Shown: positions 4,360 through 62,011, numbered from the stretch's first letter. The stretch is DNA of 64,000 bases from Alphaproteobacteria bacterium (GCA_965214975.1 OZ244055.1:1430994-1494993); one strand, 5' to 3'. Translations and numbers: made by a program. The notes: generated by a model from the sequence alone, not told the origin.

Positions 4360-4383
4360 ACCGGCTCCGCTCCGCCAGCCCGG

Positions 4384-8814: not shown

Positions 8815-8835
8815 GAGTTCATCTCCCTCCGGAAA

Positions 8836-9330
8836 TCAGACCTTCATTGACCAGCCCGGTCGGCGCTCGACTGGTCGGGCTCCGTTGGCAATGCGGAGGC
8901 CGCCTCCCGCAAGTCGGATTCGCCGGTTACCGCCTCGGCGATCAGGTGCATGATCCCGAGGGCGGAGGCTGTGTAGCGCCTTCCGAAACCTGCGTACAAT
9001 TAGTCCCTTCGCCCACAACGCACATCGGCCAACCTCTTCAACTTCGCGTACAAGCAAATCTCCTCGCCGAACCGTATAGCGTTTACGTTCGGTCGGAAGA
9101 ACATCCATCTTGGGAAAGTCGTCGACGTTGATCCGATCCCACTGGATCTCAATATCCCTAAGGCAAGGAAGCAAGTGCGCGCCTGCGATCCGATCGATGC
9201 CGAGCATCTTGCCAAGACCCTGAGAGCACCCGCAATGAAGGAGGGTGACCTTCCAATGCGACGGTACCGGTCCTAGCCACATGACTCCAGAATCCTTCAT
9301 CGACGGGTGGGGCTTGAGAGCATCGATCAA
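8836..9330 (-). pseudogene. Possible type I restriction HsdS target-recognition-domain fragment (164-aa ORF, TTG start overlapping the DUF1524 stop)
   Basis: GVMWLGPVPSHWKVTLL and RKRYTVRRGDLLVREVEEVG resemble the LPEGWEW..LG opening and GDIL..G block of HsdS TRDs, but the ORF is too short for a full HsdS. Lowest-GC stretch of the window (~50%). Confidence 0.3.
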
Positions 9331-9911: not shown

Positions 9912-11178
9912 CTTTGCCCCGAATATCGCGCATGACCAGAAACATGGCGTACTGCATGGTCGAGTAGCCGATAGCACGGAAATTCCAAATTCGTCGCGTA
10001 ATCAAGATGTCGAGATACGCTGCTACAATACGCAGCTTTCGCAGAAGATCCCGCTCACCGTCGTCGCGTCGCAAGGGTGCCAGGAGAACAGGGTATTGCA
10101 ATGTAAAGTTATTCTGGGCGCAATAATGGATCGCCTCTAAACCATCCGTTAGAGTCTCTGCTGCTTGACGTAGACGTGAATACCAATGGCCATAGAAGCA
10201 AAAGTCCTCTTCAATGAAGCGGGCGAAGTCGTTCCCCGATGACAGTCCAAGTGGTTCTTGGTTGTCGCGGACCCAGCGATGAAATTCGGTGCCTATGAGG
10301 TCGAAATCTCGCGGTTTGCCACCTCGCTTTCGCTCGCGGATGCTTTTCGCGTGCTGGCTGCGTAGCCACCCCTTGATGGCGTCAGCGATGGCGTCAGTTT
10401 CCTCCTCCTTCCCAAGATCTTGCAGACTGCTCACGTGCTTGCGCCAAAGTCGATTTGCCTTATTGCGACGCTCGCCATCGTCAATATGCGCCAAGAGATA
10501 TCCCTTGAGCATGTCGGCGGGCGTAAGCGAGAGTCCTCGGTCGTTCATAGTCTCAAAGATGGTGTAGGCGTCCGCGTCCGAATAGGCGGTGATTTCGACC
10601 AGGTAGACATTCTCGATTAGCCAATCCGAGAAATAGGGAAGAGCATCATTGACAAGATCTTCGGGAAAGTGCTCCTCAACATCCTCGAACCGCCGGAAAA
10701 TGTTGGTGACCGACTCGGACTGTCCTGCTGCTTCTATATCTGTCATATCCGCTTTGAACAGCGCGTCCATGCACACTGACCGCTCGTCGACATCAATGTT
10801 GAAAGAGCGCTGACCGAATCTTTGCGAGTAAATCAGGTCAGAAAGTTGGTGCCTCTCTTGATCATCATCGATTTGTCGATATATATAAATAAGAAGGAGT
10901 GTGAGGGTTGTTAGTCTCTGCTGGCCATCAATTATGAATTTTTGCCCCTCTTTATCGCTGATGATGATGGACCCCAAGAAGTAATGGCCGTAATCCTGAA
11001 CGCCCTTGCGGGAATCGCCAGGTTTGTAGCTATCCCGAAATTTTTCCGTGAGATCACCTATCAGCTCTGCAACTTGCTTGGTCTGCCAGCGGTATTCGCG
11101 TTGATAGTAGTCGATGGCGTATTTGGCACCGCCGAGCAGTGAACGCAGGTTCTTTGTATCGCCACGAATCTCTTTCAC
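9892..11178 (-). CDS. DUF262 (GmrS-like, ParB-nuclease-fold) protein, ~428 aa, GTG start with AGGGGAAG SD
   Basis: Hallmark IIDGQQRLTTL motif. N-terminal YAIDYYQREYRWQ (DUF262 opening). GTG 11178 is preceded at 8 nt by AGGGGAAG. Low-GC codon usage. Confidence 0.7.
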   Translation of the reverse strand: MKEIRGDTKNLRSLLGGAKYAIDYYQREYRWQTKQVAELIGDLTEKFRDSYKPGDSRKGVQDYGHYFLGSIIISDKEGQKFIIDGQQRLTTLTLLLIYIYRQIDDDQERHQLSDLIYSQRFGQRSFNIDVDERSVCMDALFKADMTDIEAAGQSESVTNIFRRFEDVEEHFPEDLVNDALPYFSDWLIENVYLVEITAYSDADAYTIFETMNDRGLSLTPADMLKGYLLAHIDDGERRNKANRLWRKHVSSLQDLGKEEETDAIADAIKGWLRSQHAKSIRERKRGGKPRDFDLIGTEFHRWVRDNQEPLGLSSGNDFARFIEEDFCFYGHWYSRLRQAAETLTDGLEAIHYCAQNNFTLQYPVLLAPLRRDDGERDLLRKLRIVAAYLDILITRRIWNFRAIGYSTMQYAMFLVMRDIRGKDAPAPC

Positions 11179-11428
11179 GGTCTGCTTCCCCTGTGATGTC
11201 GCCGAGCAACCCCTCGGTCTTCTTCTCAAGCGCCAGGATGTCGGCGCGAATCTCCTCCAGCGTCCGTATGGGCTGGAGCTCGTTGAAGTAGCGGTTGAGG
11301 AAGCCTCTCCCGTCGGTAAGCCGCGCGCAGAGCGTGGCCGGAACAGTCGATCAGCCCGTCCGTGGTCAAGACGCGCGTGCAGACCGTGTTCTCGATCCGC
11401 AACCTGCCTTCCGTCGCGCCGTCTCCGG

Positions 11429-41584: not shown

Positions 41585-41826
41585 CGTGGCGCCTCCGTCG
41601 CAAACCGCGTCCCGCCATGATAGAATCGACCGGCGCCCTTGGCGAGGGAACGGAGCGCCCGCGCCGTCGGCGGCGCTTCCTGGATCCCGCCGCGTCCTGC
41701 CGGTCCGTCCCCGCGCCTGCCCGTTCGGCGGTCCATCGCGAGGATGGCGCTCCGGCGGATGTCCGCCGCCGCCTCGGGGTTTCGCCCGGCCGGCGCCGCC
41801 GGATCCGGAGAAAGAAGGCCCGCGAG

Positions 41827-42504
41827 ATGAACGAGATCCTCGATCACGCGACGCTGAAAGACAAGCAACGCCGCCTCCGGAACGGCTTTCCCGAGACCAT
41901 GGGGCTGCGCGTCCACCGCGCGATCAGCTGGATCGGGCGCGCCGAGCGCTGCGGTGGCGACGACGACGCGCGCTTCGTCTTCCTGTGGATCGGGTTCAAC
42001 GCCGCCTACGCCGACGAGAACGAGTTCCGGGGCATCCCGCCGGAGGAGCGGCCCCAGGAACGGGACGCCTTCCGGAGATTCTTCGGCAAGCTCGTCGCGC
42101 TCGACCGCGAGGCCCGCATCCACGCCGCGATCTGGGACCAGTTCAGCGGACCGATCAGGGTGCTGATGGACAACAAGTACGTGTTCGGCCCGTTCTGGCG
42201 CCACCACAACGGCATCCCGGGACACGAGGACTGGGAAACGCGCCTCGAGAGTTCCAGGCGCGGCGTCCGCTCGGTGCTCCAGGCCGAGGACAGCGCCGGC
42301 GTGCTGTGCCGGGTCTTCGACCGGCTCTACGTGCTGCGCAACCAGATCGTCCATGGCGGCTCGACATGGAACAGCAGGGTGAACCGCTCGCAGGTCGGCG
42401 ACGGGGCCAGGATCCTGGCCTTCCTGATGCCCGTGTTCGTCGACGTCATGATGGACAATCCCGGCGAGGAATGGGGCAGGCCGTTCTATCCCGTAGTCGA
42501 TTGA
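41827..42504 (+). CDS. Hypothetical protein with a candidate HEPN-type R-x4-HG motif, 225 aa
   Basis: SD GGAGAAAGAAGG before ATG 41827. C-terminal RNQIVHGG fits the HEPN R-X4-6-H signature and the rest is predicted alpha-helical. Transcribed divergently from the catabolic cluster. Confidence 0.4.
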   Translation: MNEILDHATLKDKQRRLRNGFPETMGLRVHRAISWIGRAERCGGDDDARFVFLWIGFNAAYADENEFRGIPPEERPQERDAFRRFFGKLVALDREARIHAAIWDQFSGPIRVLMDNKYVFGPFWRHHNGIPGHEDWETRLESSRRGVRSVLQAEDSAGVLCRVFDRLYVLRNQIVHGGSTWNSRVNRSQVGDGARILAFLMPVFVDVMMDNPGEEWGRPFYPVVD

Positions 42505-44714: not shown

Positions 44715-45938
44715 TCAGGACGCCGCGGCGATCCGCTCGACGGCGGCCGCGAGAACGCGGCAGCCGGTGACGATGTCCTCTTCGGAGGTGTCTTCCGCCT
44801 CGCTGTGGCTCTTTCCGCGGATGCTCGGAATGAACAGCATCGCGGCAGGCAGGCGGCGGGCGACGATCATGGCGTCGTGCCCCGCCCCGCTCGGCATCTC
44901 CATGACGCCGACGCCGCAGTCCCCGGCGGCCGCCCGGATCCGCGCCGTCAGCGTCCGGTCCATCTCGGTCGGCGCCACGTCCAGGGCCTTCGTGGCCTCG
45001 CAGAGAAGGCCCGTCCGCTTCCCGATCGCTTCAAGGCAGTTGCGCGCCGCCGCTTCCATGGCGTCGAGCACCGACGCCGAGAGATCGCGGAACTCGAGCG
45101 AGAACAGCGCTTTCGCGGGCACCACGTTCTCGGCGCCCGGCTCGAAGCGGATCGTCCCGATGTTCCACACGCTGCCGCCGCCTCCGGCCTCCTTCATCGC
45201 GTCGTAGAGCGCCCCCGCGCAGCGGACCGCCGCCTGCCCGGCGTCCTTGCGCATGTCCATCGGCACCGTGCCGGCGTGATCCGCCTCGCCCACGATCTCG
45301 ACGCGGAGCCTCCTGATGCCCACGAGTCCCGTCACCACGCCGATCCCGACCCTCGCCGCCTCGAGCCGCGGTCCCTGCTCGATGTGGGCTTCCAGATACG
45401 CGAGGTGACGGCCGGGATCGGCAACGACCGCCGGATTGCCGCGATATCCGCATCGTCCGATCGCCTCGGCCAGAGGTTCGCCGTCGAGTCCGCTGGCCGA
45501 GGCGATCCGGTCCTCTCCGAGCTGCTCGACGAAACTCAGGCTTCCGAGGCAGGGCAGGTAGGTTCCCTCCTCGTCCATGAACGAGACCGCCTCGACCGCG
45601 ATCCCGGATCCCGCCTCCACGGCGCAACGCGCAATCTCCAGCCCGTAGATGACGCCTAGGGAGCCGTCGAGCCAGCCGCCCACGGGCACCGAATCCGAAT
45701 GCGAGCCGATGACCAGCGCGCGGCCTTCGCCGGGAGTGCGGCCGAAGACGTTACCCACGTTGTCGACCACGGTCTCGAGGCCGGCTTCCGCCATACGCTC
45801 TCTCAGCCAGGCCCGGGCGCGGGTATCGGCCTCCGAATAGGAAACACGGCCGACACCGGTGGTCAGCTTGCCGAACTCCGCCAGGGCGTGGAGGTCGTCG
45901 AGCAGCCGCCGGCCGTCGACGCGCAGGGAATCCGTCAT
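44715..45938 (-). CDS. N-carbamoyl-L-amino-acid amidohydrolase / allantoate amidohydrolase (M20 Zn-peptidase family), 407 aa
   Basis: M20 metal ligands (GSHSDSV, ..D.., EEG, H at the C-terminus) and the AmaB/HyuC-type dimerisation-domain layout. ATG 45938 confirmed. Confidence 0.8.
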   Translation of the reverse strand: MTDSLRVDGRRLLDDLHALAEFGKLTTGVGRVSYSEADTRARAWLRERMAEAGLETVVDNVGNVFGRTPGEGRALVIGSHSDSVPVGGWLDGSLGVIYGLEIARCAVEAGSGIAVEAVSFMDEEGTYLPCLGSLSFVEQLGEDRIASASGLDGEPLAEAIGRCGYRGNPAVVADPGRHLAYLEAHIEQGPRLEAARVGIGVVTGLVGIRRLRVEIVGEADHAGTVPMDMRKDAGQAAVRCAGALYDAMKEAGGGGSVWNIGTIRFEPGAENVVPAKALFSLEFRDLSASVLDAMEAAARNCLEAIGKRTGLLCEATKALDVAPTEMDRTLTARIRAAAGDCGVGVMEMPSGAGHDAMIVARRLPAAMLFIPSIRGKSHSEAEDTSEEDIVTGCRVLAAAVERIAAAS

Positions 45939-46153
45939 GGTCGCACCCGGAACCGCAGTGATCGCCCGAGAAGGTTCCCGCCATCCTAACGCCTGTCCGG
46001 CAAGACGGATAGGGTCGTTTCCCGAGCGCTTCGACCCACGCTCCGACCCGGGCTTCCCGCGCTCGGCCGCGTGACCGGCGGCGGAGACCGCTTCGGGGTT
46101 CGTCAGGACGTCCGGGACGCCTGTGTCCGCCGGCAGGATCTCTTTCGAGACGC

Positions 46154-47940
46154 CCCGAGCGTCCGGAGCGCCTTGAATCCGTTGCGGTCGCCACTAGAAT
46201 GGCCCCGCGCCACGCTCGGCGTGCGCGCCCGGGAGTGCCGGTGGCGGCCGACCTTGGGGACGAGGCGTTTCCGGCATGCCCGCATGGGACGGGCAGGCGT
46301 CCGGCAGGGAAAGCCCGAGCCATGGACCGACGCAAGCTGCCGATCGGCATCCAGACCTTTCGCGAGATCCGCGAGGAAGGCCACTACTACGTCGACAAGA
46401 CCGGCTACGCGAAAAGGCTGGTCGACGAAGGCAAGCACCATTTCCTGTCGCGGCCGCGGCGGTTCGGCAAGAGCCTGTTCCTCGACACGCTGAAGGAGCT
46501 GTTCGAGGGCAGCGAGGCGCTGTTCGAGGGACTCGCCGTCCACGGCCAGTGGGACTGGTCGGTGCGCCATCCGGTCGTGCGTCTGAGCTTCGGCCGGGGC
46601 GATTTCGAGCAACCGGGCTTTCTCGAGCGGAACGTCGCCGCGCAGCTGGACGAAATCGAGGAAGGCGCGGGTCTGGCGGCCCGATACCCCGATGCGCCGG
46701 ACCGCCTCGCGCACCTGATCAGGACGCTTCACAGACAAGCGGGCCAAAGGGCGGTCTTCCTGGTGGACGAGTACGACAAGCCGGTTCTCGACGCCCTGGG
46801 GGATCCGGAACGGGCGCGCGCGAACCGCAACTATCTGCGCGGGCTCTACTCGACCCTCAAGGACAGCGACGCCCACATCGAGTTCAGCTTCATCACCGGG
46901 GTGAGCAAGTTCACCCGGACGAGCCTGTTCTCGGGCATGAACAACCTCAGGGACATCACCCTGGATCCGCGTCATTCGGCGATCTGCGGCTACACCGAGG
47001 CCGATCTGGACACGACGTTCGCGCCGGAACTCGAGGGGCTCGACCGCGCGGCGGTCCGCGAGTGGTACAACGGCTACTCGTGGCTCGGCGAGGACAGGGT
47101 CTACAATCCGTTCGGGATTCTGCAGCTGTTCGACAGACGGGAGTTCAGGGCGTGGTGGTTCGAGACCGGCACGCCGACCTTCCTGGTCGACTTGCTGAGG
47201 TCGCGCGACGTGTTTCCCGTGGATCTCGAGAACATGCCGGCAAGCGAGGAGCTCCTGTCGGCGTTCGACGTCGGCGACATCGCGCCCGAGGCGCTGCTGT
47301 TCCAGACCGGCTATCTCACGATCACGGGCACCGAGAAACGCGGCACGCGGATCCGCCACCGGCTCGGCTACCCGAACCGGGAGGTGCGGGAGAGCCTGAA
47401 CCGATGGCTGCTGCGCAGTCTGGCGCCGGTGTCCGCGGCCGAGGAGGAGGAGCGGAACGACCGGCTTTTCGATCTTCTGGAGAGCGCGGATCTTTCCGGC
47501 ATGGAGGCGCTGTTCCATTCGGTGCTCGCAAGCGTTCCCCACCAGTGGCACGCCGGGGCCGCCGTCACCAGGCACGAGGCCTGGTTCGCCAGCGTGTTCT
47601 ATTCGTACTTTCTGGGTTCCGGCCTCGACGCGCGGGCGGAGGACACGACGAACCGGGGACGGATCGACATGTCCGTGCTGACGGACAGGCATGTCTACCT
47701 GTTCGAGTTCAAGGTGCTGGGGTCCGCCGCCAGGGGCGGCGCGATGCGCCAGCTGCGCGAGAGGGGCTACGCGGAAAAGTACAGGAGCCGCGGTCTCCCG
47801 ATCCATCTCGTCGGAGTGGAGTTCGACCCCGGGAAACGCAACATCGCGACCTTCGAGACCGCGCGGGCGTGAGTCCCGGGAACGGCTCCCGGCGACGCCC
47901 GGCGTCCCGTCCCTTTCGCGCTCCTGACCCGCATCTTCCG
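46154..47940. repeat. Direct repeat copy 1 (~1.79 kb), ~98% identical to 49361..51147 except for a ~140-nt divergent patch (46626..46765)
   Basis: Aligned by eye; a constant offset of 3207 nt holds from the leader (cccgagcgtccggagcgcc...) through the 3' flank (...gacccgcatcttccg). Confidence 0.85.
46322..47872 (+). CDS. AAA-ATPase-like (PF09820-type) + C-terminal PD-(D/E)xK nuclease-like (PDDEXK_9 / DUF1703-type) protein, 516 aa, copy 1
   Basis: N-terminal FLSRPRRFGKSLFLDT (P-loop-like GKS), VDEYDKP (Walker-B-like) and a C-terminal D...E.K block (RIDMSVLTDRHVYLFEFKV). ATG 46322 confirmed by codon count. Confidence 0.7.
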   Translation: MDRRKLPIGIQTFREIREEGHYYVDKTGYAKRLVDEGKHHFLSRPRRFGKSLFLDTLKELFEGSEALFEGLAVHGQWDWSVRHPVVRLSFGRGDFEQPGFLERNVAAQLDEIEEGAGLAARYPDAPDRLAHLIRTLHRQAGQRAVFLVDEYDKPVLDALGDPERARANRNYLRGLYSTLKDSDAHIEFSFITGVSKFTRTSLFSGMNNLRDITLDPRHSAICGYTEADLDTTFAPELEGLDRAAVREWYNGYSWLGEDRVYNPFGILQLFDRREFRAWWFETGTPTFLVDLLRSRDVFPVDLENMPASEELLSAFDVGDIAPEALLFQTGYLTITGTEKRGTRIRHRLGYPNREVRESLNRWLLRSLAPVSAAEEEERNDRLFDLLESADLSGMEALFHSVLASVPHQWHAGAAVTRHEAWFASVFYSYFLGSGLDARAEDTTNRGRIDMSVLTDRHVYLFEFKVLGSAARGGAMRQLRERGYAEKYRSRGLPIHLVGVEFDPGKRNIATFETARA

Positions 47941-48131
47941 CAGGAACTTTCGGCGGTCCAGCCGATCCAGGCATCCTGGCACACGGTCCTGAAGGCGCCG
48001 GACTGCCGCCCCGCAAGCGCGACCCACTCCCCGCGCCATGCGACGATGTAGCGCGGCCCGCGTCCGGCGAGGAACTCGACGGAATCGAGGACTTCCGGCG
48101 CAGCCGGGGGCGCAAGCACCGGATCGCGACC

Positions 48132-49172
48132 GTGCTCGCGATCCATCTTCTCGCGCGGCTCTCGAATATGCGCGGGCCGGTCGCCGCCGCCGAGTACGCG
48201 GGCACGCTGTCGCAGCGGGAGCTGGAAGCGCTCGGCGCCTGGAAAGACCCGAAGACCGGCCGCTTCGTGCCGGTCCCGGAGTCGACCCTGCACCGGGTCG
48301 TCACCTCCGTCGACCCCGAGCGGTTCGAGGCGGCGCTACAGCGCTTCGCGATGGCGCGGCTGAACCTCGGCCGCGCGATCGCGGTCGACGGCAAGCGCAT
48401 CCGCGGCGCGAACCGCAACGGCGCGGACCACCACGAGACCGCGACCCTGGTCGACCACGCGACCCGCGCGCCGCTCGCAAGCCTCGCCTTCAACGAGGAG
48501 GGCGGCGAGGTCGCCGCCGTGCACGCGCCGCTCGAGCGGGTTCCCGTCGACGGCCGCGTGATCACCCTCGACGCGCTCCACACAACCCGCAAAACCGCCC
48601 GCCTCGTCAAGGACACCCACGGCGCCGACTATCTCATGACGGTCAAGGGAAACGCTCCCGAGACCCGGGAGATCCTCTCCTCCATCGACTGGGAAGACGA
48701 CGGGCACGGCCACTTCACCGAAGACATCGACAAGGTCCACGGACGCAGCGGGCAACGCCGCATCACGACCCTGACCCCGCACCCGCGCCTGATCAACTAT
48801 CCCCACGTCGACCGGATCTTCCGGGTCACCCGCGAGCGCACCGACGCGCGCCGCAACGGCACCGGAGAGACCGCCGGCGGGCACGCCTACGGCATCACCT
48901 CCGCGCCGGCGGAGCGCGCCTCCCCGCAGGATCTTCTCGCCTGGAACCGTGGACACTGGGCGGTCGAGGCCCACCACCACGTCCGGGACACGGTCTTCGG
49001 CGAGGACACGTGCCTCGCGCGAACCGGCTTCGCGCCCGAGAACAACGCGACCGCCACCAGCCTCGCGCTCGCGGTCATCATCCACAGGACCGGCTCCGCC
49101 GGCATCGCCTCGGCAACCCGGCGCTTCGCGCTCCGGCGCAGGGACGCCTTCGCCGCGATCCTGTCCCCCTGA
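48132..49172 (+). mobile_element. ISAs1-family transposase, apparently 5'-truncated (346-aa ORF from GTG 48132; the frame stays open upstream to the repeat junction with no start codon)
   Basis: AIAVDGKRIRG...ETATLVDHA...ITLDALHTTRKTARLVKDTHGADYLMTVKGN matches the ISAs1 (H-repeat) DDE core. The upstream in-frame peptide IEDFRRSRGRKHRIATVLAIHLLARL matches the DDE_Tnp_1_assoc N-terminal region but has no ATG/GTG/TTG. Confidence 0.65.
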
Positions 49173-49360
49173 ACGCCGCGGCGCGCCGCCGCAACGCCGC
49201 CGGTCCGCCGGCATCGACCTCCGGCACCTCCGGACCCGAATCCCGCCCCGGAAGAAGGCCGCGAACCCGCGAAACGGGCCGTCGCGCGCCGGCCGCAACG
49301 CCCGGACGCGGCCCGGACCGACCGCAATCGGCCGCAATCGGGGAGCGTGGGATAGTCCTG

Positions 49361-51147
49361 CCCGAGCGTCCGGAGCGCCTTGAATCCGTTGCCGTCGCCA
49401 CTAGAATGGCCCCGCGCCACGCTCGGCGTGCGCGCCCGGGAGTGCCGGTGGCGGCCGACCTTGGGGACGAGGCGTTTCCGGCATGCCCGCATGGGACGGG
49501 CAGGCGTCCGGCAGGGAAAGCCCGAGCCATGGACCGACGCAAGCTGCCGATCGGCATCCAGACCTTTCGCGAGATCCGCGAGGAAGGCCACTACTACGTC
49601 GACAAGACCGGCTACGCGAAAAGGCTGGTCGACGAAGGCAAGCACCATTTCCTGTCGCGGCCGCGGCGGTTTGGCAAGAGCCTGTTCCTCGACACGCTGA
49701 AGGAGCTGTTCGAGGGCAGCGAGGCTCTGTTCGAGGGACTCGCCGTCCACGGCCAGTGGGACTGGTCGGTGCGTCATCCGGTCGTGCGTCTGAGCTTCGG
49801 CCGCGGCGATTTCGAGCAACCGGGCTTTCTCGACCGCAACATCGCGACCCAGCTCGATGCCGTTGAAAGGCGATCGGACCTGAAGTCCGGATATTCCGAT
49901 GCATCCGAGCGTTTCGCCTACCTGCTCGAGGCGCTTCACGAGCGGACGGGACAGAGGGTCGTCGTGCTGGTGGACGAGTACGACAAGCCGGTTCTCGACG
50001 CCCTGGGGGATCCGGAACGGGCGCGCGCGAACCGCAACTATCTGCGCGGGCTCTACTCGACCCTCAAGGACAGCGACGCCCACATCGCGTTCAGCTTCAT
50101 CACCGGGGTGAGCAAGTTCACCCGGACGAGCCTGTTCTCGGGCATGAACAACCTCAGGGACATCACGCTCGATTCGCGCTACTCCGCGATCTGCGGCTAC
50201 ACCGAGGCCGATCTGGACACGACGTTCGCGCCGGAACTCGAGGGGCTCGACCGCGCGACGGTCCGCGAGTGGTACAACGGCTACTCGTGGCTCGGCGAGG
50301 ACAGGGTCTACAACCCGTTCGGGATTCTGCAGCTGTTCGACAGACGGGAGTTCAGGGCGTGGTGGTTCGAGACCGGCACGCCGACCTTCCTGGTCGACTT
50401 GCTGAGATCGCGCGACGTGTTTCCCGTGGATCTCGAGAACATGCCGGCAAGCGAGGAACTCCTGTCGGCGTTCGACGTCGGCGACATCGCGCCCGAGGCG
50501 CTGCTGTTCCAGACCGGCTATCTCACGATCACGGGCACGGACAGACGCGGCACGCGGATCCGCCACCGGCTCGGCTACCCGAACCGGGAGGTGCGGGAGA
50601 GCCTGAACCGATGGCTGCTGCGCAGTCTGGCGCCGGTGTCCGCGACCGAGGAGGAGGAACGGAACGACCGGCTTTTCGATCTTCTGGAGAGCGCGGATCT
50701 TTCCGGCATGGAGGCGCTGTTCCATTCGGTGCTCGCAAGCGTTCCCCACCAGTGGCACGCCGGGGCCGCCGTCACCAGGCACGAGGCCTGGTTCGCCAGC
50801 GTGTTCTATTCGTACTTTCTGGGTTCCGGCCTCGACGCGCGGGCGGAGGACACGACGAACCGGGGACGGATCGACATGTCCGTGCTGACGGACAGGCACG
50901 TCTACCTGTTCGAGTTCAAGGTGCTGGGGTCCGCCGCCAGGGGCGGCGCGATGCGCCAGCTGCGCGAGAGGGGCTACGCGGAAAAGTACAGGAGCCGCGG
51001 TCTCCCGATCCATCTCGTCGGAGTGGAGTTCGACCCCGGGAAACGCAACATCGCGACCTTCGAGACCGCGCGGGCGTGAGTCCCGGGAACGGCTCCCGGC
51101 GACGCCCGGCGTCCCGTCCCTTTCGCGCTCCTGACCCGCATCTTCCG
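49361..51147. repeat. Direct repeat copy 2 (~1.79 kb); divergent patch at ~49833..49972, which is lower in GC than the rest
   Basis: See copy 1. This copy's patch encodes DRNIATQLDAVERRSDLKSGYSDASERFAYLLEALHERTGQRVVV, against ERNVAAQLDEIEEGAGLAARYPDAPDRLAHLIRTLHRQAGQRAVF in copy 1. Confidence 0.85.
49529..51079 (+). CDS. AAA-ATPase-like + PD-(D/E)xK (DUF1703-type) protein, 516 aa, copy 2
   Basis: Same length and motifs as copy 1. Differs at ~35 residues clustered in aa ~103-148, plus a few scattered substitutions. Confidence 0.7.
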   Translation: MDRRKLPIGIQTFREIREEGHYYVDKTGYAKRLVDEGKHHFLSRPRRFGKSLFLDTLKELFEGSEALFEGLAVHGQWDWSVRHPVVRLSFGRGDFEQPGFLDRNIATQLDAVERRSDLKSGYSDASERFAYLLEALHERTGQRVVVLVDEYDKPVLDALGDPERARANRNYLRGLYSTLKDSDAHIAFSFITGVSKFTRTSLFSGMNNLRDITLDSRYSAICGYTEADLDTTFAPELEGLDRATVREWYNGYSWLGEDRVYNPFGILQLFDRREFRAWWFETGTPTFLVDLLRSRDVFPVDLENMPASEELLSAFDVGDIAPEALLFQTGYLTITGTDRRGTRIRHRLGYPNREVRESLNRWLLRSLAPVSATEEEERNDRLFDLLESADLSGMEALFHSVLASVPHQWHAGAAVTRHEAWFASVFYSYFLGSGLDARAEDTTNRGRIDMSVLTDRHVYLFEFKVLGSAARGGAMRQLRERGYAEKYRSRGLPIHLVGVEFDPGKRNIATFETARA

Positions 51148-51392
51148 TTCGTCACGCCACCCGGAAGGCGTTGCGGGCGGCCGTTGCATCGGATCTTGCG
51201 GGGGCCTGTCGGGCGGAGCGGCCGGGCCGGCGCCCGGTTTCGGCTCCCGACAGTCCCGTCCCGAGCGCCCCGAACGGACGGCGGCATTCGTCACCCGTCG
51301 CGCGAGAGTGTATCCTGTACGGTGGATTCGCCGCCTCTGCGGGAGCCGTCGCGCGGTTCGTGAATCCTGCCTCCTCCCGGAACCTGGCGAAG

Positions 51393-52223
51393 ATGTCACC
51401 CCAACCGCCCTGGACGGATGACGAGAACGACCTGCTCGTCGCGGACCACTTCGCGATGCTGGCCGACGAGCTCGCCGGACGGAAATTCAGCAAGGCCGGA
51501 CATCGGCGAGAGCTGCAAGAGCGCCTCAGAAGACGTACAGAACCTTCCATCGAGTTCAAGCACCGCAACGTCAGCGCCGTGCTCCAGGGGCTCGGCGAGG
51601 ACTGGATCCGCGGCTACAGGCCCGCCGCCAACTTCCAGGCGACGCTGATCGACGCCGTGGAGAGATGGCTGGCACGCAATCCCGGGTGGCTCGGTCGCCC
51701 GCCGCGGCCTCTTCCCGTCGGCGGCACCGCCCCGCTCCTGTTCGGACACGCCCCGACACTCGGCAACCGGCCGCCGCCGAAGGGGCTCGACCGGACGCTG
51801 GAGGTCGCGCTGAGATTCGACGTGCCGGCCCGGGACGAACGCAACCGCGAGCTGGGTCGCGCCGGCGAGGAACGGGTGCTGCTACACGAACGGGCCGAAC
51901 TGGACCGGGCGGGACGACGCGACCTCGCCGAGCGGGTGCGGTGGGTGTCCGTCGAGGACGGCGACGGCGCCGGCTTCGACATCGAGAGTTTCACGGAGGA
52001 CGGACGGGCGCGCCTGATCGAGGTGAAGACGACCAACGGCTGGGAGCGCACGCCCTTCCACATCACGAGCAACGAGCTGGCCGTCGCCGACAGGCGGCCG
52101 GGAGAGTGGCTCCTGACCAGAGTGTGGAACTTTTCCCGGGAACCGCGCGCGTTCGACCTGAGGCCGCCTCTCGAGACGCACGTGTCCCTGACGCCGACGA
52201 CCTTCCGGGCGGAGTTCGGATGA
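51393..52223 (+). CDS. DUF3883 domain protein (restriction-endonuclease-like PD-(D/E)xK fold), 276 aa
   Basis: C-terminal GRAGEERV...GFDIESF...RLIEVKTT...FHITSNE...YLLTRVW matches the DUF3883 (NO VEIN C-terminal) pattern with a D...E.K catalytic-like triad. The N-terminal ~150 aa are unassigned. Confidence 0.55.
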   Translation: MSPQPPWTDDENDLLVADHFAMLADELAGRKFSKAGHRRELQERLRRRTEPSIEFKHRNVSAVLQGLGEDWIRGYRPAANFQATLIDAVERWLARNPGWLGRPPRPLPVGGTAPLLFGHAPTLGNRPPPKGLDRTLEVALRFDVPARDERNRELGRAGEERVLLHERAELDRAGRRDLAERVRWVSVEDGDGAGFDIESFTEDGRARLIEVKTTNGWERTPFHITSNELAVADRRPGEWLLTRVWNFSREPRAFDLRPPLETHVSLTPTTFRAEFG

Positions 52224-52292
52224 GCCGGCTCCGCCGCGTTTCCGCCCGACGAAGCCCCCTCTCCGCCGCCCGCGGTTCCGGCGGCGTCCCGG

Positions 52293-53309
52293 TCAGGCGC
52301 CGAACGTGAAACGGCTTCCGAGATTGGAGCCGACCAGACGGTCGGGCATGCGACGCCTCATGGACTCGATGAAACCCTGCCCCGTGCAGTGCATCGGGAT
52401 GACGACGTCGGGGCCGAGCGCCTCGAGCTCGTCGACCGTGTGCTCGATGTAGCCGGGCCTGGAGGTCGTCAGGTGGAACCCTCCCACGACCGCGTGAAGC
52501 CGGTCGGTGCCGGCCACCTGCATCGCGCTCTTCACCGAATTGACGATTCCCGCATGCCCGCAGGACGAGATCACGACCAGCCCCTTGCCGCGCACGAGAT
52601 AGCAGGTCGCGTGCTCCTCCGGATGGCTGTCGTGCACCAGCTCGCCGCGCCGCTCGGCTTCGGAGAAATGGTCCGGAACCTCGAGCATCGATCCGCCCGT
52701 GACCTCCTCGAACGAATCGCGCGCGATGTAGCCCGTGGTGAACGCCCCGTCGAGCGCCTGCGGCTCGTGGCAGCACGTCGGCGTCACCGCCTGCGCCGTG
52801 AGCGCGGTGCGGTCGGGAGCGCCCCAGCACACCATCTCCGGCTCGGCGCCGGGGCGGGGCACGGCCCGGACCCAGCGGACGTGGAACGCTTCCTCGGCGC
52901 CGACGAACAGCTGGAGATCCTCGCGCATCCCGACGCGGTGCCGCTCGACGAAACCGTGCAGGCCGCCGTAGTGGTCGCGGTGGCCGTGGCTCAGGATGAG
53001 CCCGTTGAGCCGTCCGGGATCGACGTCGAGCAGGTCGAAATTGCGGTTCAGGATCTCCGGCGTGTAGCCGAAGTCCAGCAGATACCCAGCCCTGTCGCCG
53101 CGGGACGACGATTCGAGGTGCAGGGACAGCCCCCATTCCCCAGCGAGCGTGCTCATCTGCCGGCCGGGAATGGCGCCCACGTGCTCGATGGCGACATGCG
53201 GATGGGCGGCTTTCGGCAGAAACCGCTCGTAATGGGAATCGACCACCACCCGGATCGACAGGCGGTCGACCACGGGCGCGGCGAACGGCGACTGGCGGCG
53301 CGCGCTCAT
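52293..53309 (-). CDS. MBL-fold metallo-hydrolase, 338 aa
   Basis: HxHxDH motif ILSHGHRDHYGG, plus downstream His/Asp ligands (SCGHAG, MHCTG). Confidence 0.75.
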   Translation of the reverse strand: MSARRQSPFAAPVVDRLSIRVVVDSHYERFLPKAAHPHVAIEHVGAIPGRQMSTLAGEWGLSLHLESSSRGDRAGYLLDFGYTPEILNRNFDLLDVDPGRLNGLILSHGHRDHYGGLHGFVERHRVGMREDLQLFVGAEEAFHVRWVRAVPRPGAEPEMVCWGAPDRTALTAQAVTPTCCHEPQALDGAFTTGYIARDSFEEVTGGSMLEVPDHFSEAERRGELVHDSHPEEHATCYLVRGKGLVVISSCGHAGIVNSVKSAMQVAGTDRLHAVVGGFHLTTSRPGYIEHTVDELEALGPDVVIPMHCTGQGFIESMRRRMPDRLVGSNLGSRFTFGA

Positions 53310-55733: not shown

Positions 55734-56489
55734 CTATCCGAAGGCCGCGCCGCCGTTGACGTTGACGTTCTCGCCCGTGACGAAGCCGGCGTCGTCCGAC
55801 AGCAGCCAGACCGCGGCCGCGGCCGGCTCCTCGGGCCGCGAGATGCGCCCGAGCGCGGCCCGCGCCGCGGCGTCGGCCTTGGCGGCGGCGCTGTAGCCGG
55901 CGGTCATCGCGGTCTCGACCACGCCGGGGCTGAGCGCGTTGACCCGGATGCCGTGACTCCCCCAGACCCTGGCGAGACAGCGCACGAGCACCAGGACGCC
56001 GCCCTTGGAGGTCGTGTAGGCCGGACCGCCCCGCCCCTGTTCGCCGGCGCCGCCCATGAGAACCCCGCCCGAGGCGGTCAGCACCATGGCGCCGCGGTTC
56101 CGGCCCCCGATCATGGCCTTCGCGGCGGCCTTCGCCATCAGGAACGACCCGGTCACGTTGACCGAGAGAATGCGGTTGAACTCCTCGGCGTCCGACTCCT
56201 CCCAGTTCAGCTGCGAATGCTCGGCCGCGAAATGCGCCAGCCCGTCGAGGCCGCCGAACGCCGAGGTCGCCGCCGCGCTCGCGCGTTCGGCGGTTTCCGG
56301 CAACGCGACGTCGCCGGCGACGAAGGCGAGCGCCGAGGTTCCGCCGCCGTGACGGGATTCGAGCGCGCCCCGGTCGAGGTCGACGGCCACGACGCGGTTT
56401 CCCTCCGCGAGCAGCCGCTCGACGCAGGCACCCCCGATGCCGCCCGCGGCTCCGGTGACGATGAAGGTTCGGTCGGTCAGTGAAGCCAT
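55734..56489 (-). CDS. SDR family oxidoreductase, 251 aa
   Basis: TGAAGGIG cofactor motif and YTTSKGGV catalytic YxxxK. Confidence 0.8.
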   Translation of the reverse strand: MASLTDRTFIVTGAAGGIGGACVERLLAEGNRVVAVDLDRGALESRHGGGTSALAFVAGDVALPETAERASAAATSAFGGLDGLAHFAAEHSQLNWEESDAEEFNRILSVNVTGSFLMAKAAAKAMIGGRNRGAMVLTASGGVLMGGAGEQGRGGPAYTTSKGGVLVLVRCLARVWGSHGIRVNALSPGVVETAMTAGYSAAAKADAAARAALGRISRPEEPAAAAVWLLSDDAGFVTGENVNVNGGAAFG

Positions 56490-56492
56490 TCC

Positions 56493-57377
56493 CTATTCGT
56501 CCCTGGACAGGGTGACGATCGCGATGCCGGTCACGATCAGGACGATACCGGCCGCGAGCGACCAGGTCAGCGTCTCGCCGAGAAAAAGGACGCTGATGAC
56601 GAGCGCCACCACCGGCACGCCGAGAAAGCCGACCGTCGAGACCGCGGAGGGCAGGTTCCTGATGGCCGTGGTCACGCCCCAGTTCCCGAGGCCGCTCGCG
56701 ACGATCCCGGAATAGAGATAGAGCCACAATGCGGTTTCGGTCAACTCGAACCCGGGAAGCCCCTCGAACGCCAGCGCGGCGCAGGTCGCCACCGCGCAGG
56801 CCACGAGAAGGAAGAACGGCACCAGCTGCAGCGTGTCCGAAACCTGCCTGTGAACCCGCATGTGGAGGATCACCCCGGACCACAGGATGACGCAGAACAC
56901 GATCATGCCGTTGCCGAGGAGAACCCCGCGATCCGTCCAGTCCAGTTCCAGCGGGTTGAACAGGGCCAGGAAACCGGCCACGGCCGCGAGCAGGCCCGCA
57001 AGGCGAAGCGGCGTCAGCCGCTCTCCCAGGAACAGCGCCGCCGCGGGAGTGACGAAGATCGCCGTCGTGTAGCCGAGGATCGTGGCGCGGCCGGCGTGGA
57101 CGTGTTGCAGCGCGCTCTGGAACACCGACGAGTAGACACCGAACATCAGGCCGCCGACGCTCAGCACGATGGGAATGTCGGCCCGCGCAGGCAGCCGCAG
57201 ACGGCCGCAGACGGCGAGCAGCAGGGCGACGAAAAGGCCGCCGATGGCGAACCTGCCGGCCGTGAACCACAGCGGCGGCACGTGAGCGATCGCGAACTTG
57301 CCGGCGGTCCACAGCGTCCCGAAACAGAACACCGTCAGCGCCAGCGCCAGAAGCCCGAGTCTGCGGTTCTCGGTCAT
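56493..57377 (-). CDS. DMT superfamily (EamA-like) transporter, 294 aa
   Basis: Ten predicted TM helices arranged as two EamA repeats. Confidence 0.7.
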   Translation of the reverse strand: MTENRRLGLLALALTVFCFGTLWTAGKFAIAHVPPLWFTAGRFAIGGLFVALLLAVCGRLRLPARADIPIVLSVGGLMFGVYSSVFQSALQHVHAGRATILGYTTAIFVTPAAALFLGERLTPLRLAGLLAAVAGFLALFNPLELDWTDRGVLLGNGMIVFCVILWSGVILHMRVHRQVSDTLQLVPFFLLVACAVATCAALAFEGLPGFELTETALWLYLYSGIVASGLGNWGVTTAIRNLPSAVSTVGFLGVPVVALVISVLFLGETLTWSLAAGIVLIVTGIAIVTLSRDE

Positions 57378-58037
57378 CGACGGCCATGGAACGCGGTGGC
57401 GGCGCCCGTCACGCGCCGCCGCCCCGGCGCGAGCGCCGGCCCGACGGCCGGTCCGGCACGTGACGGAATCCCGGACGGGGACGACGCGACGACGCGTCCG
57501 CGCCGCCTTCGGTCAGGACGGCGAAGCTGTTCCCGGCGAGCGCCCCCGGAAATCACGCCGACGCGGTCTCGAACGCCGCGGCGTTGCGCTTCCCGGAATC
57601 GAACCCGGCTCCGGCGCAACGGATCCGCGGGCCGCGTTCCCGGCAATTTGCCGCATGGCTCCTCTGGCGCGGCTTCCTCATCGCGTCGCCCTCTCCGGCA
57701 GGCCCCGGCACCTTGAACCCGGACGGCGACGCGCGCCGCCCCCGGTCCGTCGCGTCCTCCACCCGCGCGTCGAGACCCGACCCGATGCGGGCATGCCGGA
57801 AGCGCGCCGCCCGGCGGCGGCCACCGCAAGCGCCAGCGTGTCAGGCGCGACGCCCGCCATCGTAGCAGAACGCCGGATCGCGGCGCGGCGCGGTTGCGCG
57901 GCAACCCTCCGCCGGAGACCGGGAACCCGGCGCGCGGACAAGCCGGAACGCGAGCGACCGCGACGGGCCGGTCCGGGGCGTCGCGGATGCGCCGGTTCCG
58001 GCGACGGCCCGGCGAACGCGGCGCCGTTGCCGACCGC

Positions 58038-59312
58038 CTAGTTGATGTGGCGGGTCAGGAACAGGGACAGTTCCGGAACGTAGGTCACGATCAGCAGGGC
58101 GACGATGTTGATGAAGATGAACGGGACCAGCCCCGGATAGATGCTCGTCAGCGGAACCTTGAAGAGCGCCTGCGTCACGAAGATGTTGAGGCCGAACGGC
58201 GGCGTGAACATCCCGATCGCGAGATTGACCGTCATGATGATCCCGAAATGAATCAGGTCCACGCCCATCGCCGCCGCGATCGGCGCCAGCAGCGGCGTGA
58301 GCACGAGAATCGCCGAACCCGGATCGAGAAGGCAGCCCACGAAGAGCAGGAAGACGTTGATCACGAGCAGCACCATCCACGGCTCGAGGTGCATCTCCTG
58401 GATCGTCGCCACCGCGCTCTGCGGAATCCCGCTTATGGTGAGAAGCTGGGAGAACACGCCGGCCGCGGCGACGATGATCAGGACCTGGGCGGTCAGGTAC
58501 ATCGAGTTGACGGAAACGTCCCAGATGCCCTTCCAGTCGATGTCCCCGTAGACGAAGCGGGTGACGACGACGGCGTAGACGCAGGCGATGCCCGCGGATT
58601 CGGTGGGCGAGAACACGCCGGCGTAGATGCCGCCGAGGATGATGATCGGCGTGCCAAGCGCCCAGATCCCGTCCCTGCTGGCGCGCAGGAACTCGCGCGC
58701 GGAGAAGCCCCGGGACTCGCGGATGCCGCGGCGGACGGCGAAGGCGTAGATGTAGGCCGCCATGAGCGCCGCCATGATCAGCCCGGGCACGATGCCCGCG
58801 ACGAACAGCAGCGCGACCGACTGCTCCGCCGACGCCCCGTAGAGGATCATGCCGATCGACGGCGGGATGACGATGGCGATGGCTCCCGAGGAGGCGAGGA
58901 GGCCGGAGGAGAAGCGCTCGTCGTAGCCGGCGTCGCGGAGCGGGCCGTAGAGCAGCCGGCCCACGGCCGCCACGGTCGCGGGGCTCGAGCCGGATATGGC
59001 GCCGAACACCGTGCAGGTGCCCACGGTGGTGAGCGCGAGGCTGCCGCGCACGCCGCCGATGACCGAAAGCACCCAGGCGACGATCCGCTTGGAGATGCCG
59101 CCGTGCCCCATCAGTTCGCCGGCGAAGATGAAGAACGGCACGGCCATGAGCGCGAACTTGTCGACGCTGCCGAACATGTTGATGTGGACGGCCGTCGCCG
59201 GCACCGGGGAGAAGAGCAGCAGGACGATCGCGGCCGTGGCCAGCAGAATCACGAAGATGGGGAAGCCCAGCAACAGCAGGATCACCGGGACGATCGCCAT
59301 GACCCATTCCAT
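58038..59312 (-). CDS. dctM: TRAP transporter large permease, DctM family, 424 aa
   Basis: SD GGAGGAAG before ATG 59312. 12-TM DctM layout with conserved PFFIFAGELM and GGIYAGVFSPTE blocks. Confidence 0.85.
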   Translation of the reverse strand: MEWVMAIVPVILLLLGFPIFVILLATAAIVLLLFSPVPATAVHINMFGSVDKFALMAVPFFIFAGELMGHGGISKRIVAWVLSVIGGVRGSLALTTVGTCTVFGAISGSSPATVAAVGRLLYGPLRDAGYDERFSSGLLASSGAIAIVIPPSIGMILYGASAEQSVALLFVAGIVPGLIMAALMAAYIYAFAVRRGIRESRGFSAREFLRASRDGIWALGTPIIILGGIYAGVFSPTESAGIACVYAVVVTRFVYGDIDWKGIWDVSVNSMYLTAQVLIIVAAAGVFSQLLTISGIPQSAVATIQEMHLEPWMVLLVINVFLLFVGCLLDPGSAILVLTPLLAPIAAAMGVDLIHFGIIMTVNLAIGMFTPPFGLNIFVTQALFKVPLTSIYPGLVPFIFINIVALLIVTYVPELSLFLTRHIN

Positions 59313-59347
59313 GAGAACTTCCTCCGCGCTCGCCGGGGCCGGGGCGC

Positions 59348-59908
59348 CTAGCGGCCCGGGGAGCCGTCGTCGGCGCCGTACTCCTCGACCAGATCGGCGA
59401 CCTCGCTGGAGAGCTCGCCCCTGACGTGGGCCCGGAACCGGACCGCGACGGCGACGAAGACGAGGACGAAGCCGAGCAGCAGGGCGAAATGCGGAATGAC
59501 CATGGGGATCTCGGCCACCACGCTGCGCTGGTCGTTGTCCCACATCAGCTCGACCACCTCCCAGCTCTGGGGGATGACGAAGACGCAGATCGCGAGAACC
59601 GAGACCGTGGCCACGAAGTTGATGATCTCCTTCCACGGGGACGGGAGCATGATCGAGAAGAAGTCCATCTTGAGATGCTGGCCCTCGAACGAGACCAGGA
59701 CCGAGCCGATGAACACGGTCCAGACCATGATGTAGATCATGATCTCCTCGGCCCAGATGATCGGTTCCAGGAACACGTAGCGCCCGATCACGTTCGCGAA
59801 ATTGATCGCGATCCCGGCCAGGATGACGACCCCGATGATGATTCTCGGAACCGTGACGATCGCGTGCCAGACCGGCACCGGCACGTCGCCCTTTCGGCCT
59901 GCCGACAT
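59348..59908 (-). CDS. dctQ: TRAP transporter small permease, DctQ family, 186 aa
   Basis: Four TM helices and size typical of DctQ. Lies immediately upstream of dctM; SD GGAGGAGA before ATG 59908. Confidence 0.7.
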   Translation of the reverse strand: MSAGRKGDVPVPVWHAIVTVPRIIIGVVILAGIAINFANVIGRYVFLEPIIWAEEIMIYIMVWTVFIGSVLVSFEGQHLKMDFFSIMLPSPWKEIINFVATVSVLAICVFVIPQSWEVVELMWDNDQRSVVAEIPMVIPHFALLLGFVLVFVAVAVRFRAHVRGELSSEVADLVEEYGADDGSPGR

Positions 59909-60086
59909 CCGTCTCCTCCGCCCCTCGACGACGCTCCGCCTCCCGCCGGTCTGTCTAGTGGAAAACCCCGCGGCTGTCCAACCGGCCGGACCGGGCGCGG
60001 AATCCGGGACGGGGCGGAGCGTGTTGGCCGCCGCGAGGCCCCGGCGTATCATGGCCGGAGAAACGTCCGCGCACGGAGACGGAGAC

Positions 60087-60800
60087 ATGCCGCACCCATT
60101 CGAGATGCCCCGGGAGCACGTCGAGCGCGTCGTCGCCCGCCAGGGGCGAGAGCACACCTGCGAGATCTTCGACACCCGCAGGACGGCGCTGGTGGTCGTC
60201 GACATGCAGAACTACTTCATGGACGAGAGCCAGCAGGCCGGCTGCCCCGTGGGCCAGACCGTCGTCGACAACGTGAACCGCATCGCCGACACCGTCCGGC
60301 GCACCGGCGGGATCGTCGTCTGGATCCAGAACATGGCCCCGGCCGACACGCCGGCGTCCTGGAAGACCGCCCACGAGCGCAACCTCCCGGACAAGGGCGA
60401 CCTCCGCATCAGGTCGATGACTCCCGGCGCCTGGCCGTTCGAGCTGTGGCCGGCCCTCGACGTGCGCGAGGAGGACCGCCGCGTCGTCAAGCGCCGCTAC
60501 AGCGCCTTCATCCAGGGATCCTCGGACATCGAGCTCGTGCTCAGGGACCACGGCATCGAGAACGTCCTGATCTGCGGCGTGGCGACCAACGTCTGCTGCG
60601 AATCCACGGCCCGCGACGCGATGATGCTCAACTACCGGACCCTGATGGTTTCCGACGGCTGCGCGACGGCCACAGACGAGGAGCACGCCGGCGCCCTCAA
60701 GGCCTTCTACCTGCATTTCGGGGACGTCCAGGCGACCGACGAGCTGTGCGCCCGTCTCGAGGCGTCCGCCCGTCGCAACGCGCCGGCGGCCGCCGGATGA
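60087..60800 (+). CDS. Isochorismatase-family cysteine hydrolase, 237 aa
   Basis: Catalytic triad context: ALVVVDMQNYF (Asp), K in the RRYSAFIQG region, and LICGVATNVCCESTARDA (Cys nucleophile). Confidence 0.75.
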   Translation: MPHPFEMPREHVERVVARQGREHTCEIFDTRRTALVVVDMQNYFMDESQQAGCPVGQTVVDNVNRIADTVRRTGGIVVWIQNMAPADTPASWKTAHERNLPDKGDLRIRSMTPGAWPFELWPALDVREEDRRVVKRRYSAFIQGSSDIELVLRDHGIENVLICGVATNVCCESTARDAMMLNYRTLMVSDGCATATDEEHAGALKAFYLHFGDVQATDELCARLEASARRNAPAAAG

Positions 60801-60820
60801 CCGCCTGAGGGAGACCCGCC

Positions 60821-62011
60821 ATGGCAGCGCCCGCCGTTCCCGCCCCGCCGAAGGGCAAGACCGTCATCCGCAACGTCGGGACGATGCTGTCCGGGGCGCT
60901 CGAGAACCCGGTTCTCGACGCCGACACGCTGGTCGCCGTCGACGGCCGGATCGCGGCCTTCGGCAAGGCCGGCGACGTCGATCAGGAGGGTGCCGACCTG
61001 ACCGTCGACGCGCACGGCGTCACGCTCTGCCCGGGACTGGTCGACAGCCACGTCCATCCGGTCTTCGGCGACTGGACGCCGCGCCAGAACCAGCTCGGCT
61101 GGATCGATTCCTCGATGCACGGCGGCGTCACCACGATGATCTCGGCCGGAGAGGTGCATCTTCCGGGACGGCCCAGGGATCCCAGGGGCGTGGTCGCCCT
61201 CGGGATCACGGCGCAGCGCGCGTTCTCGGCGTTCCCGCCGGGCGGCGTCAAGATCCATGCGGGGGCCCCGATCCTCGAGACCGGCATGGTCGAGGAGGAT
61301 TTCAGGGAACTGGCCGAGGCCGGCGTGAGGCTTCTCGGCGAGATCGGCCTCGGCGGGGTCAAGGCCGGCGCCGAGGCCCGCCAGATGGTGGACTGGGCCC
61401 GCAAGTACGGCATCCAGTCGACGATTCACACCGGCGGCCCCTCGATCCCCGGTTCCGGCCTGATCGACAAGGACGTGGTCCTGGAGGCGGGCGCGGACAT
61501 CATCGGCCACATCAACGGCGGGCACACGGCGCTTCCCCTCGACCAGATCCGCTGCCTGTGCGAGGAATGCCGGGCCGGCATCGAGATCGTGCACAACGGC
61601 AACGCGACGGCGGCGCTGTTCGCGCTGCGGGCCGCCTCCGGGCTCGGCCAGCTCGAGCGCGTCATTCTCGGCACCGACGGGCCCGCGGGCTCCGGCGCGC
61701 AGCCGCTGGGCATTCTCCGCACCGTCGCTCTGCTGTCGTCCCTCGGGGAAGTGCCGGCGGAAACCGCGTTCTGCTTCGCCACCGGAAACACCGCCCGGGT
61801 GCGCGATCTCGACTGCGGGCTCGTCGAGGAAGGCCGGGCCGCGGACTTCGTGTTCCTCGACCGCGCCCAGCACAGCGCGGGCTCGGACATGCTCGACAGC
61901 GTGCGAAAGGGCGACCTTCCCGGGGTCGGGATGGTCATGATCGACGGCAGGATCGCGAGCGGCCGCAGCCGCAACACGCCGCCCGCCGAACGGATTCCCG
62001 AAGCGCTCTGA
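60821..62011 (+). CDS. Amidohydrolase-superfamily protein, enamidase / HutI-like small subfamily, 396 aa
   Basis: SD GAGGGAGA before ATG 60821. DSHVHP metal motif, later H..H and DG ligands, ~390 aa size. Confidence 0.7.
   Translation: MAAPAVPAPPKGKTVIRNVGTMLSGALENPVLDADTLVAVDGRIAAFGKAGDVDQEGADLTVDAHGVTLCPGLVDSHVHPVFGDWTPRQNQLGWIDSSMHGGVTTMISAGEVHLPGRPRDPRGVVALGITAQRAFSAFPPGGVKIHAGAPILETGMVEEDFRELAEAGVRLLGEIGLGGVKAGAEARQMVDWARKYGIQSTIHTGGPSIPGSGLIDKDVVLEAGADIIGHINGGHTALPLDQIRCLCEECRAGIEIVHNGNATAALFALRAASGLGQLERVILGTDGPAGSGAQPLGILRTVALLSSLGEVPAETAFCFATGNTARVRDLDCGLVEEGRAADFVFLDRAQHSAGSDMLDSVRKGDLPGVGMVMIDGRIASGRSRNTPPAERIPEAL

Follow-up and report, generated by a model that had tools for sequence, protein, structure and literature searches.

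Genes that encode a P-loop ATPase and a nuclease domain in one protein of the DUF1703 type have been described in Cardinium hertigii cCpun, where an expansion of 25 paralogues with an average identity of 39% shows intragenic recombination and partial copies, and where secretion of the proteins has been proposed (PMC6387759). The same work surveyed other genomes and found ten or more copies in 9.8% of the species with this family (PMC6387759), and no function was assigned to the DUF1703 family in the libraries and literature that we searched. Here, we studied a stretch of 64,000 nucleotides from Alphaproteobacteria bacterium (GCA_965214975.1, OZ244055.1:1430994-1494993; hereafter the window, with a G+C content of ~70%), in which two DUF1703-type genes of 516 codons each, A1 (46322..47872, plus strand) and A2 (49529..51079, plus strand), are followed by gene C (51393..52223, plus strand), which encodes a 276-aa DUF3883/NOV_C PD-(D/E)xK nuclease of the PADLOC family PDC-S36. 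A sequence-only reading of this region had grouped A1, A2, and C as one candidate gene set of three consecutive same-strand genes. Our analyses instead indicate that the region very probably consists of three independent elements lying side by side between ordinary metabolic genes, rather than one system. The genes do share a strand, but they are not strictly consecutive, since a 1420-bp insertion sequence (IS) of the ISAs1 family separates A1 from A2. The genes flanking the A1-IS-A2-C region encode an M20 peptidase, an amidohydrolase, an MBL-fold protein, a CoA-transferase III, and a Rieske oxygenase.

The evidence for independent elements comes from reciprocal searches of the neighborhoods of both families. 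The best 80 matches of each scan were taken with flanks of +/-10 kb, which gave 80 genomic C loci from diverse Alphaproteobacteria and, for A, 80 metagenomic loci that were supplemented with two from assemblies (82 loci, 826 kb). No match to A1, A2, or the transposase was detected by tblastn in the 80 C loci, none to C in the 82 A loci, and none in either direction when family hidden Markov models (HMMs) were run against six-frame open reading frames (ORFs). The neighbors of the A genes were heterogeneous, with 179 Pfam families among 138 flanking ORFs and none occurring more than 4 times, and matches to PADLOC models among them were only scattered. Because adjacency was found at 0/80 C loci and 0/82 A loci and A neighbors were so mixed, A1, A2, and C do not form a conserved unit; the neighborhood conservation that the earlier grouping called for is thus lacking in both directions. 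The grouping being coincidental, a three-gene system at this site is without importance. The genes, domains, motifs, and repeat are themselves real features, for which an origin by chance is ruled out.

Several observations weigh against this separation into independent elements. Only 313 bp separate A2 from C, which has the same orientation, and no terminator-like site was found between them, so that co-transcription by read-through from A2 into C is possible; moreover, a second assembly (99.5% identity) has the same junction between the A2 tail and C, so that the arrangement persists within the species at least. In addition, PDC-S36 is a computational candidate only, the recombination route that we propose below for the A duplication is inferred from one locus, the AlphaFold models of A1 (pLDDT 64) and C (pLDDT 52) were too weak for use, and a fold search of the Protein Data Bank (PDB) with the A1 model returned no match below E 1e-3. 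The shared strand, the terminator-free gap, and the junction common to both assemblies, together with catalytic motifs that are all intact and the membership of C in a defence-candidate family, are also what a lineage-specific defence system would display, in which the ATPase-nuclease would act as a DNA sensor or translocase, with the DUF3883 nuclease as a second effector co-transcribed with A2. We regard such a system as scarcely credible, given that the reciprocal searches never placed the two families together, that C is by definition a single-gene candidate, one that usually travels with a prophage integrase, that A genes occur alone or in arrays of their own kind with unrelated neighbors, and that each A copy has a promoter-like site of its own.

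Having separated the genes, we then consider the A proteins. In A1, Pfam AAA-ATPase_like (PF09820; E 2e-59, 201.2 bits, cut-off 26.1) precedes PDDEXK_9 (PF08011; E 6e-20, 71.7 bits, cut-off 25.5), and A2 has the same two domains (E 2e-61, 207.6 bits and E 6e-20, respectively), so that in both proteins the two domains stand in the N-to-C order and above the gathering scores of a DUF1703-type protein. The architecture is that of a P-loop ATPase, a middle region of ~200 aa, and a C-terminal PD-(D/E)xK nuclease. Walker A (G49-K50-S51), Walker B (D149-E150), and the nuclease residues D449/E462/K464 are intact and invariant across 26 aligned sequences, A1 and A2 included. Together with the nuclease domain of C (described below), these domains and motifs confirm the earlier description of three nuclease-fold proteins, two of them with a P-loop ATPase, and none of the three falls in a housekeeping family.

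We next compared A1 and A2 with known defence proteins that have a similar composition. PF09820 is listed in a review for RdrA of RADAR (PMC10952713), and RdrA-type ATPases and Avs/STAND nuclease fusions likewise combine a P-loop ATPase and a PD-(D/E)xK nuclease in one polypeptide. The A proteins differ from them in that no PADLOC family, RdrA and Avs models included, matched A1 or A2 at E <= 0.01, in that an RdrB partner and a repeat-type sensor domain are absent, and in that the nuclease is C-terminal. An assignment of A to RADAR was rejected, as no RdrA profile matched and no deaminase was present nearby. Scans of A1 and A2 with NCBIfam and PHROG models gave nothing meaningful (the sole NCBIfam match of A2 was sub-threshold, with E 0.0024 and 17.9 bits vs a cut-off of 158), and a sequence search of solved structures found no relative of A1. 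The sub-threshold fold matches of the A1 model (all E > 1e-3) were to NLRC4, ORC, and Apaf-1, i.e., STAND/ORC-type ATPases, and to PD-(D/E)xK nucleases. The statement that no named system is recognizable at this locus is out of date for C, for which the search with defence models gave a full-length PDC-S36 match.

A1 and A2 are two recent copies within a large lineage-specific DUF1703 expansion, with ~20 distinct paralogues on the source contig. Specifically, seven clusters at 90% identity (P0121-P0127) contain 20 distinct A-family sequences, all located on one 3,807,671-bp contig that also has a 100%-identical C, and the paralogues on this contig are 62-73% identical. The four closest paralogues are A1 (identical to P0121), A2 (identical to P0243), P0241, and P0242, which have 97-100% identity outside aa 93-146. 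Within this patch (codons 93-146 of A1, 46598..46759, plus strand, located between Walker A and Walker B), the four proteins have three versions with 43-54% mutual identity, and only one pair has the same patch. A1 and A2 (93.8% identity) differ at 32 amino acids, 25 of them within residues 102-146. Two regions stand out as the most variable in the A family, and the patch is one of them; in the mediocre A1 model it appears as two helices between the Walker motifs. The A2 patch is 89% identical to that of a more distant paralogue, P0125, vs 70% over the remainder of the protein, which indicates gene conversion between paralogues. As judged from these alignments, the A paralogues trade sequence by gene conversion, chiefly in the patch between Walker A and Walker B. 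This variable patch would tune what an A protein recognizes. The Cardinium family is similar in its two-domain architecture, tens of paralogues (25 there, ~20 here), intragenic recombination, and partial copies. The present family differs in that its host is alphaproteobacterial (as indicated by the C homologues), its paralogues are 62-73% rather than on average 39% identical, its recombination is focused on one patch between Walker A and Walker B, and two of its copies flank an IS.

The duplication that contains A1 and A2 has a precise geometry. An identity profile at a fixed offset of 3207 nt gave exact boundaries for a direct repeat of 1787 bp, of which copy 1 (46154..47940, plus strand) comprises a 168-bp leader, A1, and a 68-bp tail, and copy 2 (49361..51147, plus strand) the corresponding leader, A2, and tail. 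The copies are 95.9% identical overall, with 98.6% identity outside codons 100-146 and 64% inside. Each leader contains the same sigma-70-like promoter match, TTGAAT-16-TAGAAT (46173..46200 and 49380..49407, both plus strand; consensus matches only); these are the 2 sites found in 45900-52400, where 0.2 would be expected, one per A copy. The spacer between the copies is exactly the ISAs1-family element (47941..49360, plus strand): the right end of copy 1 touches the first IS base and the left end of copy 2 touches the last, so that the repeat contacts both IS ends.

The adjoining mobile element that had been noticed from the sequence alone is thus confirmed, as an ISAs1-family IS. Its transposase reading frame (47928..49172, plus strand; supported by the open frame, GC3, and homology) matches NCBIfam NF033564 (E 5e-39, 134.3 bits, cut-off 70) as well as Pfam DDE_Tnp_1, and is 33-39% identical to annotated ISAs1 transposases. 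The 1420-bp size and CAGG termini also agree with the features of the ISAs1 family in ISfinder. The termini are imperfectly inverted, with the element starting CAGGAACTTTC... and ending ...GATAGTCCTG; they have CAGG(A)ACT..TC in common and match at 13/30 positions ungapped. The element differs from others of its family in these weak inverted repeats, in the absence of a target-site duplication in its flanks (GCATCTTCCG / IS / CCCGAGCGTCC), and in its transposase start. The frame contains no ATG, GTG, or TTG before GTG 48132, whereas homology to other ISAs1 transposases already begins upstream, at about residue 25-48. Because this conserved N-terminus has no canonical start codon upstream, the element looks complete but its transposase gene is possibly defective. 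Two further features called here were discarded: a 1013-aa ORF (48038-51079), which is an artefact of the open frame upstream of A2, and a suspected DUF4338-like fragment on the minus strand (47940-48293), which had no Pfam, PADLOC, or NCBIfam match.

A simple insertion of the IS between two pre-existing A genes does not seem to fit this geometry. Since the repeat touches both IS ends and a target-site duplication is absent, recombination rather than simple IS insertion is suggested. The A-IS-A arrangement could have arisen by homologous recombination between IS-adjacent A copies, or an IS+A circle could have integrated into a resident A gene.

The A family is also dynamic at other sites. A genes often occur in arrays, with two or more copies at 12/82 loci, and one unrelated 5.6-Mb metagenome contig has four DUF1703-type genes clustered (one inverted and three in tandem; positions 1932-9571 of locus L082) beside a DDE_Tnp_1 transposase. 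Three of these four genes have ~100 bp of upstream sequence in common, a further sign of local duplication. Within the window, a truncated intergenic remnant of a third A-family gene was detected at 57556..57840 on the minus strand; it retains only the C-terminus of PDDEXK_9, with 49% identity to A1 residues 431-516 in tblastn and a family HMM match over positions 428-515 (E 1e-11), and therefore the A family leaves decayed fragments too. An EamA-like transporter ORF and a TRAP DctM-like ORF, so named on the basis of sequence alone, flank this remnant.

The ~20 copies in one genome, the decayed intergenic fragment, the sharp repeat boundaries that coincide with the IS ends, and the DDE_Tnp_1 gene adjoining the four-gene array could alternatively mean that the 1787-bp A unit is mobile itself, or that A supplies the ISAs1 transposase with an accessory ATPase/nuclease, as TnsC/TnsA do in Tn7, with A-IS-A resulting from transposition. 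This explanation is very unlikely in our view. When A-gene flanks from the window and two other loci (L082 and L083) were aligned, no conserved element ends emerged across these genomes, and neither A unit is surrounded by a target-site duplication; there is accordingly no sign, in the sequences compared, that A behaves as a transposon. Furthermore, an ISAs1 homologue was present at 0/82 A loci, no transposase family recurred among the 138 neighbors, and the 62-73% identity between paralogues points to old divergence rather than active copying. From the domains, the changes in copy number, and the variable patch, we infer that each A protein would work by itself and cleave DNA under the control of ATP, with a role in genetic conflict, i.e., in defence or in selfish maintenance.

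Gene C belongs to a different family, which forms a tight group. Its product matches Pfam NOV_C/DUF3883 (PF13020; E 1.5e-20), and the nuclease residues D196/E210/K212 are intact and invariant in the family alignment. The start had been placed at an upstream TTG (51171); because homologues are ~277 aa long and begin MSNGPWTDEEND, we place it at ATG 51393. PADLOC PDC-S36 matches over the full length of C (E 2.7e-114, 379.6 bits; residues 1-275 on profile positions 1-279 of 280), in agreement with the length and domain of the ~277-aa alphaproteobacterial family. PDC entries of PADLOC are computational "phage defence candidate" genes (PMC11514479), and PDC-S36 was not mentioned in the literature searched. 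Homologues from many Alphaproteobacteria have 65-69% identity to the window copy, with a mean column identity of 79% in the family; the window C differs from the other members sampled as the most divergent of them (about 68% identity).

Weaker matches connect C to two named defence proteins. TmtA of Tiamat was matched with E 1e-12 (residues 145-259 on profile positions ~1180-1630 only, at the C-terminal end) and PD-T4-1 with E 9e-11 (profile positions 245-330 of 383, or 78-163 of 216, only). What C has in common with TmtA (profiles of 1300-1650 aa) and PD-T4-1 (profiles of 216-383 aa) is a C-terminal NOV_C PD-(D/E)xK module of ~100 aa; in place of their N-terminal parts, it has a distinct helical N-terminus of ~140 aa without a family match. 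C was not assigned to Tiamat, since only the C-terminal end aligned and C has 276 aa vs a large protein with an N-terminal ATPase region, nor to PD-T4-1, where the match covers only part of the profile. The N-terminal 141 aa of C had no Pfam match even at E 0.1, and a sequence search of solved structures with C gave noise only. A Myb/SANT-like reading of "WTDEEND" in the N-terminus is an impression only.

The setting of C in other genomes is that of a prophage end. At related loci, a tRNA-Ser gene or its 3' fragment lies ~400 bp upstream of the C homologue, which faces an operon encoding a 127-aa protein (PHROG "recombinase"), a large serine recombinase (Resolvase, Recombinase, and Zn ribbon domains; PHROG integrase), and DUF2924, C being transcribed convergently to this operon. 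Among the 80 C loci, the 127-aa protein was present in 59 and the recombinase in 45. C was also carried by 56 IMG/VR provirus contigs, with the integrase module beside it in 48-49 (in many cases after ~13 nt), and it was frequently the terminal gene of the contig. The tRNA-Ser gene, the integrase operon, and this position at provirus contig ends together indicate that, within a prophage-like element, C is normally the gene nearest the attachment site.

Additional genes were observed between the C homologue and the integrase operon at two loci, HEPN_RiboL-PSP in one (L008, 11018-11665, minus strand) and an HNH+HIT fusion in the other (L021, 11666-12784, minus strand), which suggests that this end of the prophage has a slot for variable cargo. 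The interval of ~400 bp between tRNA-Ser and C is conserved as DNA across hosts (L008 9640-9990, L009 9600-9990, L014, L021, and L051), and it contains a terminator-like hairpin, GGCCCCGATTGGGGCCTTTTTTCTTTTT, and an inverted-repeat motif, GGAGACTG...GGTCTCCGAA...GTCTCT. This interval could be an att or recombinase-binding region, or a small RNA.

None of this setting was found around the window copy, which in this respect differs from the PDC-S36 family at large. The only tRNA in the window is a tRNA-Gly at 7927-8000, with none near C; a tblastn search of the window with the 127-aa protein, the integrase, and DUF2924 yielded no match better than E 0.1; and no tRNA or att remnant was detected upstream of C, where similarity to the prophage loci is confined to the ribosome-binding region. 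The window C is thus an orphan that has lost its usual prophage partners while keeping every invariant residue. Upstream of C, directly past the end of the A2 repeat, a short rearrangement of ~40-50 bp was observed between the second assembly (L081, 93-133) and the window (~51174-51184).

The tight linkage of C to the integrase operon, with constant spacing (13 nt in many of the 56 provirus loci), raises the question of whether C serves defence at all. It could instead belong to the machinery by which the tRNA-Ser prophage integrates and excises or replicates, with the window copy a decaying leftover, and the unusually high conservation across hosts and the purely computational status of PDC-S36 would fit such a role. 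We consider this unlikely, if with a real chance of being correct: C is convergent to the integrase operon rather than part of it, other defence-type cargo (HEPN_RiboL-PSP and HNH+HIT) occupies the same slot, its DUF3883 domain matches the C-terminal regions of the TmtA and PD-T4-1 models, no PHROG family corresponds to it, and the orphan copy is intact in two assemblies. Our favored reading is that C is likely a Mg-dependent DNA nuclease, a predicted activity that its element would use against competing DNA. The earlier impression of a defence or mobile-element flavor thus holds for the individual genes, as C matches PDC-S36 over its full length and is carried elsewhere by prophage-like elements.

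Three other features of the window were noted. A low-GC islet (51-55% vs ~70%) at 7927-11229, adjoining tRNA-Gly(ccc) at 7927-8000, encodes a split GmrSD-type type IV restriction enzyme (GmrSD_N/DUF262 at 9892-11229, minus strand, E 9e-35; GmrSD_C at 9327-9977, minus strand, E 8e-10) and a DUF5615 protein (8276-8671, minus strand), and it resembles a small defence island associated with the tRNA, without relation to the A and C genes. A 295-aa ORF with good codon bias (41617-42504, plus strand) has an Rx4H motif (LRNQIVHGG) typical of HEPN ribonucleases and had no match in Pfam, PADLOC, NCBIfam, or PHROGs; it is 4 kb upstream of A1, with three metabolic genes in between. A sustained positive AT skew of 0.14-0.24, well above the remaining window, extends over minus-strand transporter genes at 56000-61000 and probably reflects membrane-protein codon content.

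Overall, comparative sequence evidence presents the locus as an ordinary juxtaposition of catalogued families, i.e., DUF1703 expansions and PDC-S36, and as both families are already catalogued, it adds further members to known kinds. Further attention is merited only by the variable patch, which behaves like a cassette in near-identical A paralogues. The A paralogues may form a diversifying repertoire of stand-alone ATP-dependent nuclease sensors, in which a cassette at aa 93-146 is shuffled by gene conversion to give near-identical backbones with different specificities, and of which A1 and A2 would represent two alleles seen shortly after a duplication associated with the IS; we offer this as a tentative idea with a slim chance of being right. 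For PDC-S36, the finding that C is, in most sampled genomes, the outermost gene of tRNA-Ser-integrating serine-integrase prophage-like elements guides the choice of elements and hosts for testing. For the A family, the locus provides a clean case of patch-wise gene conversion in DUF1703 paralogues, with the patch as a concrete handle for swaps, and if the repertoire idea is true, such sensors would be a prokaryotic counterpart to the receptor-family diversification of innate immunity.

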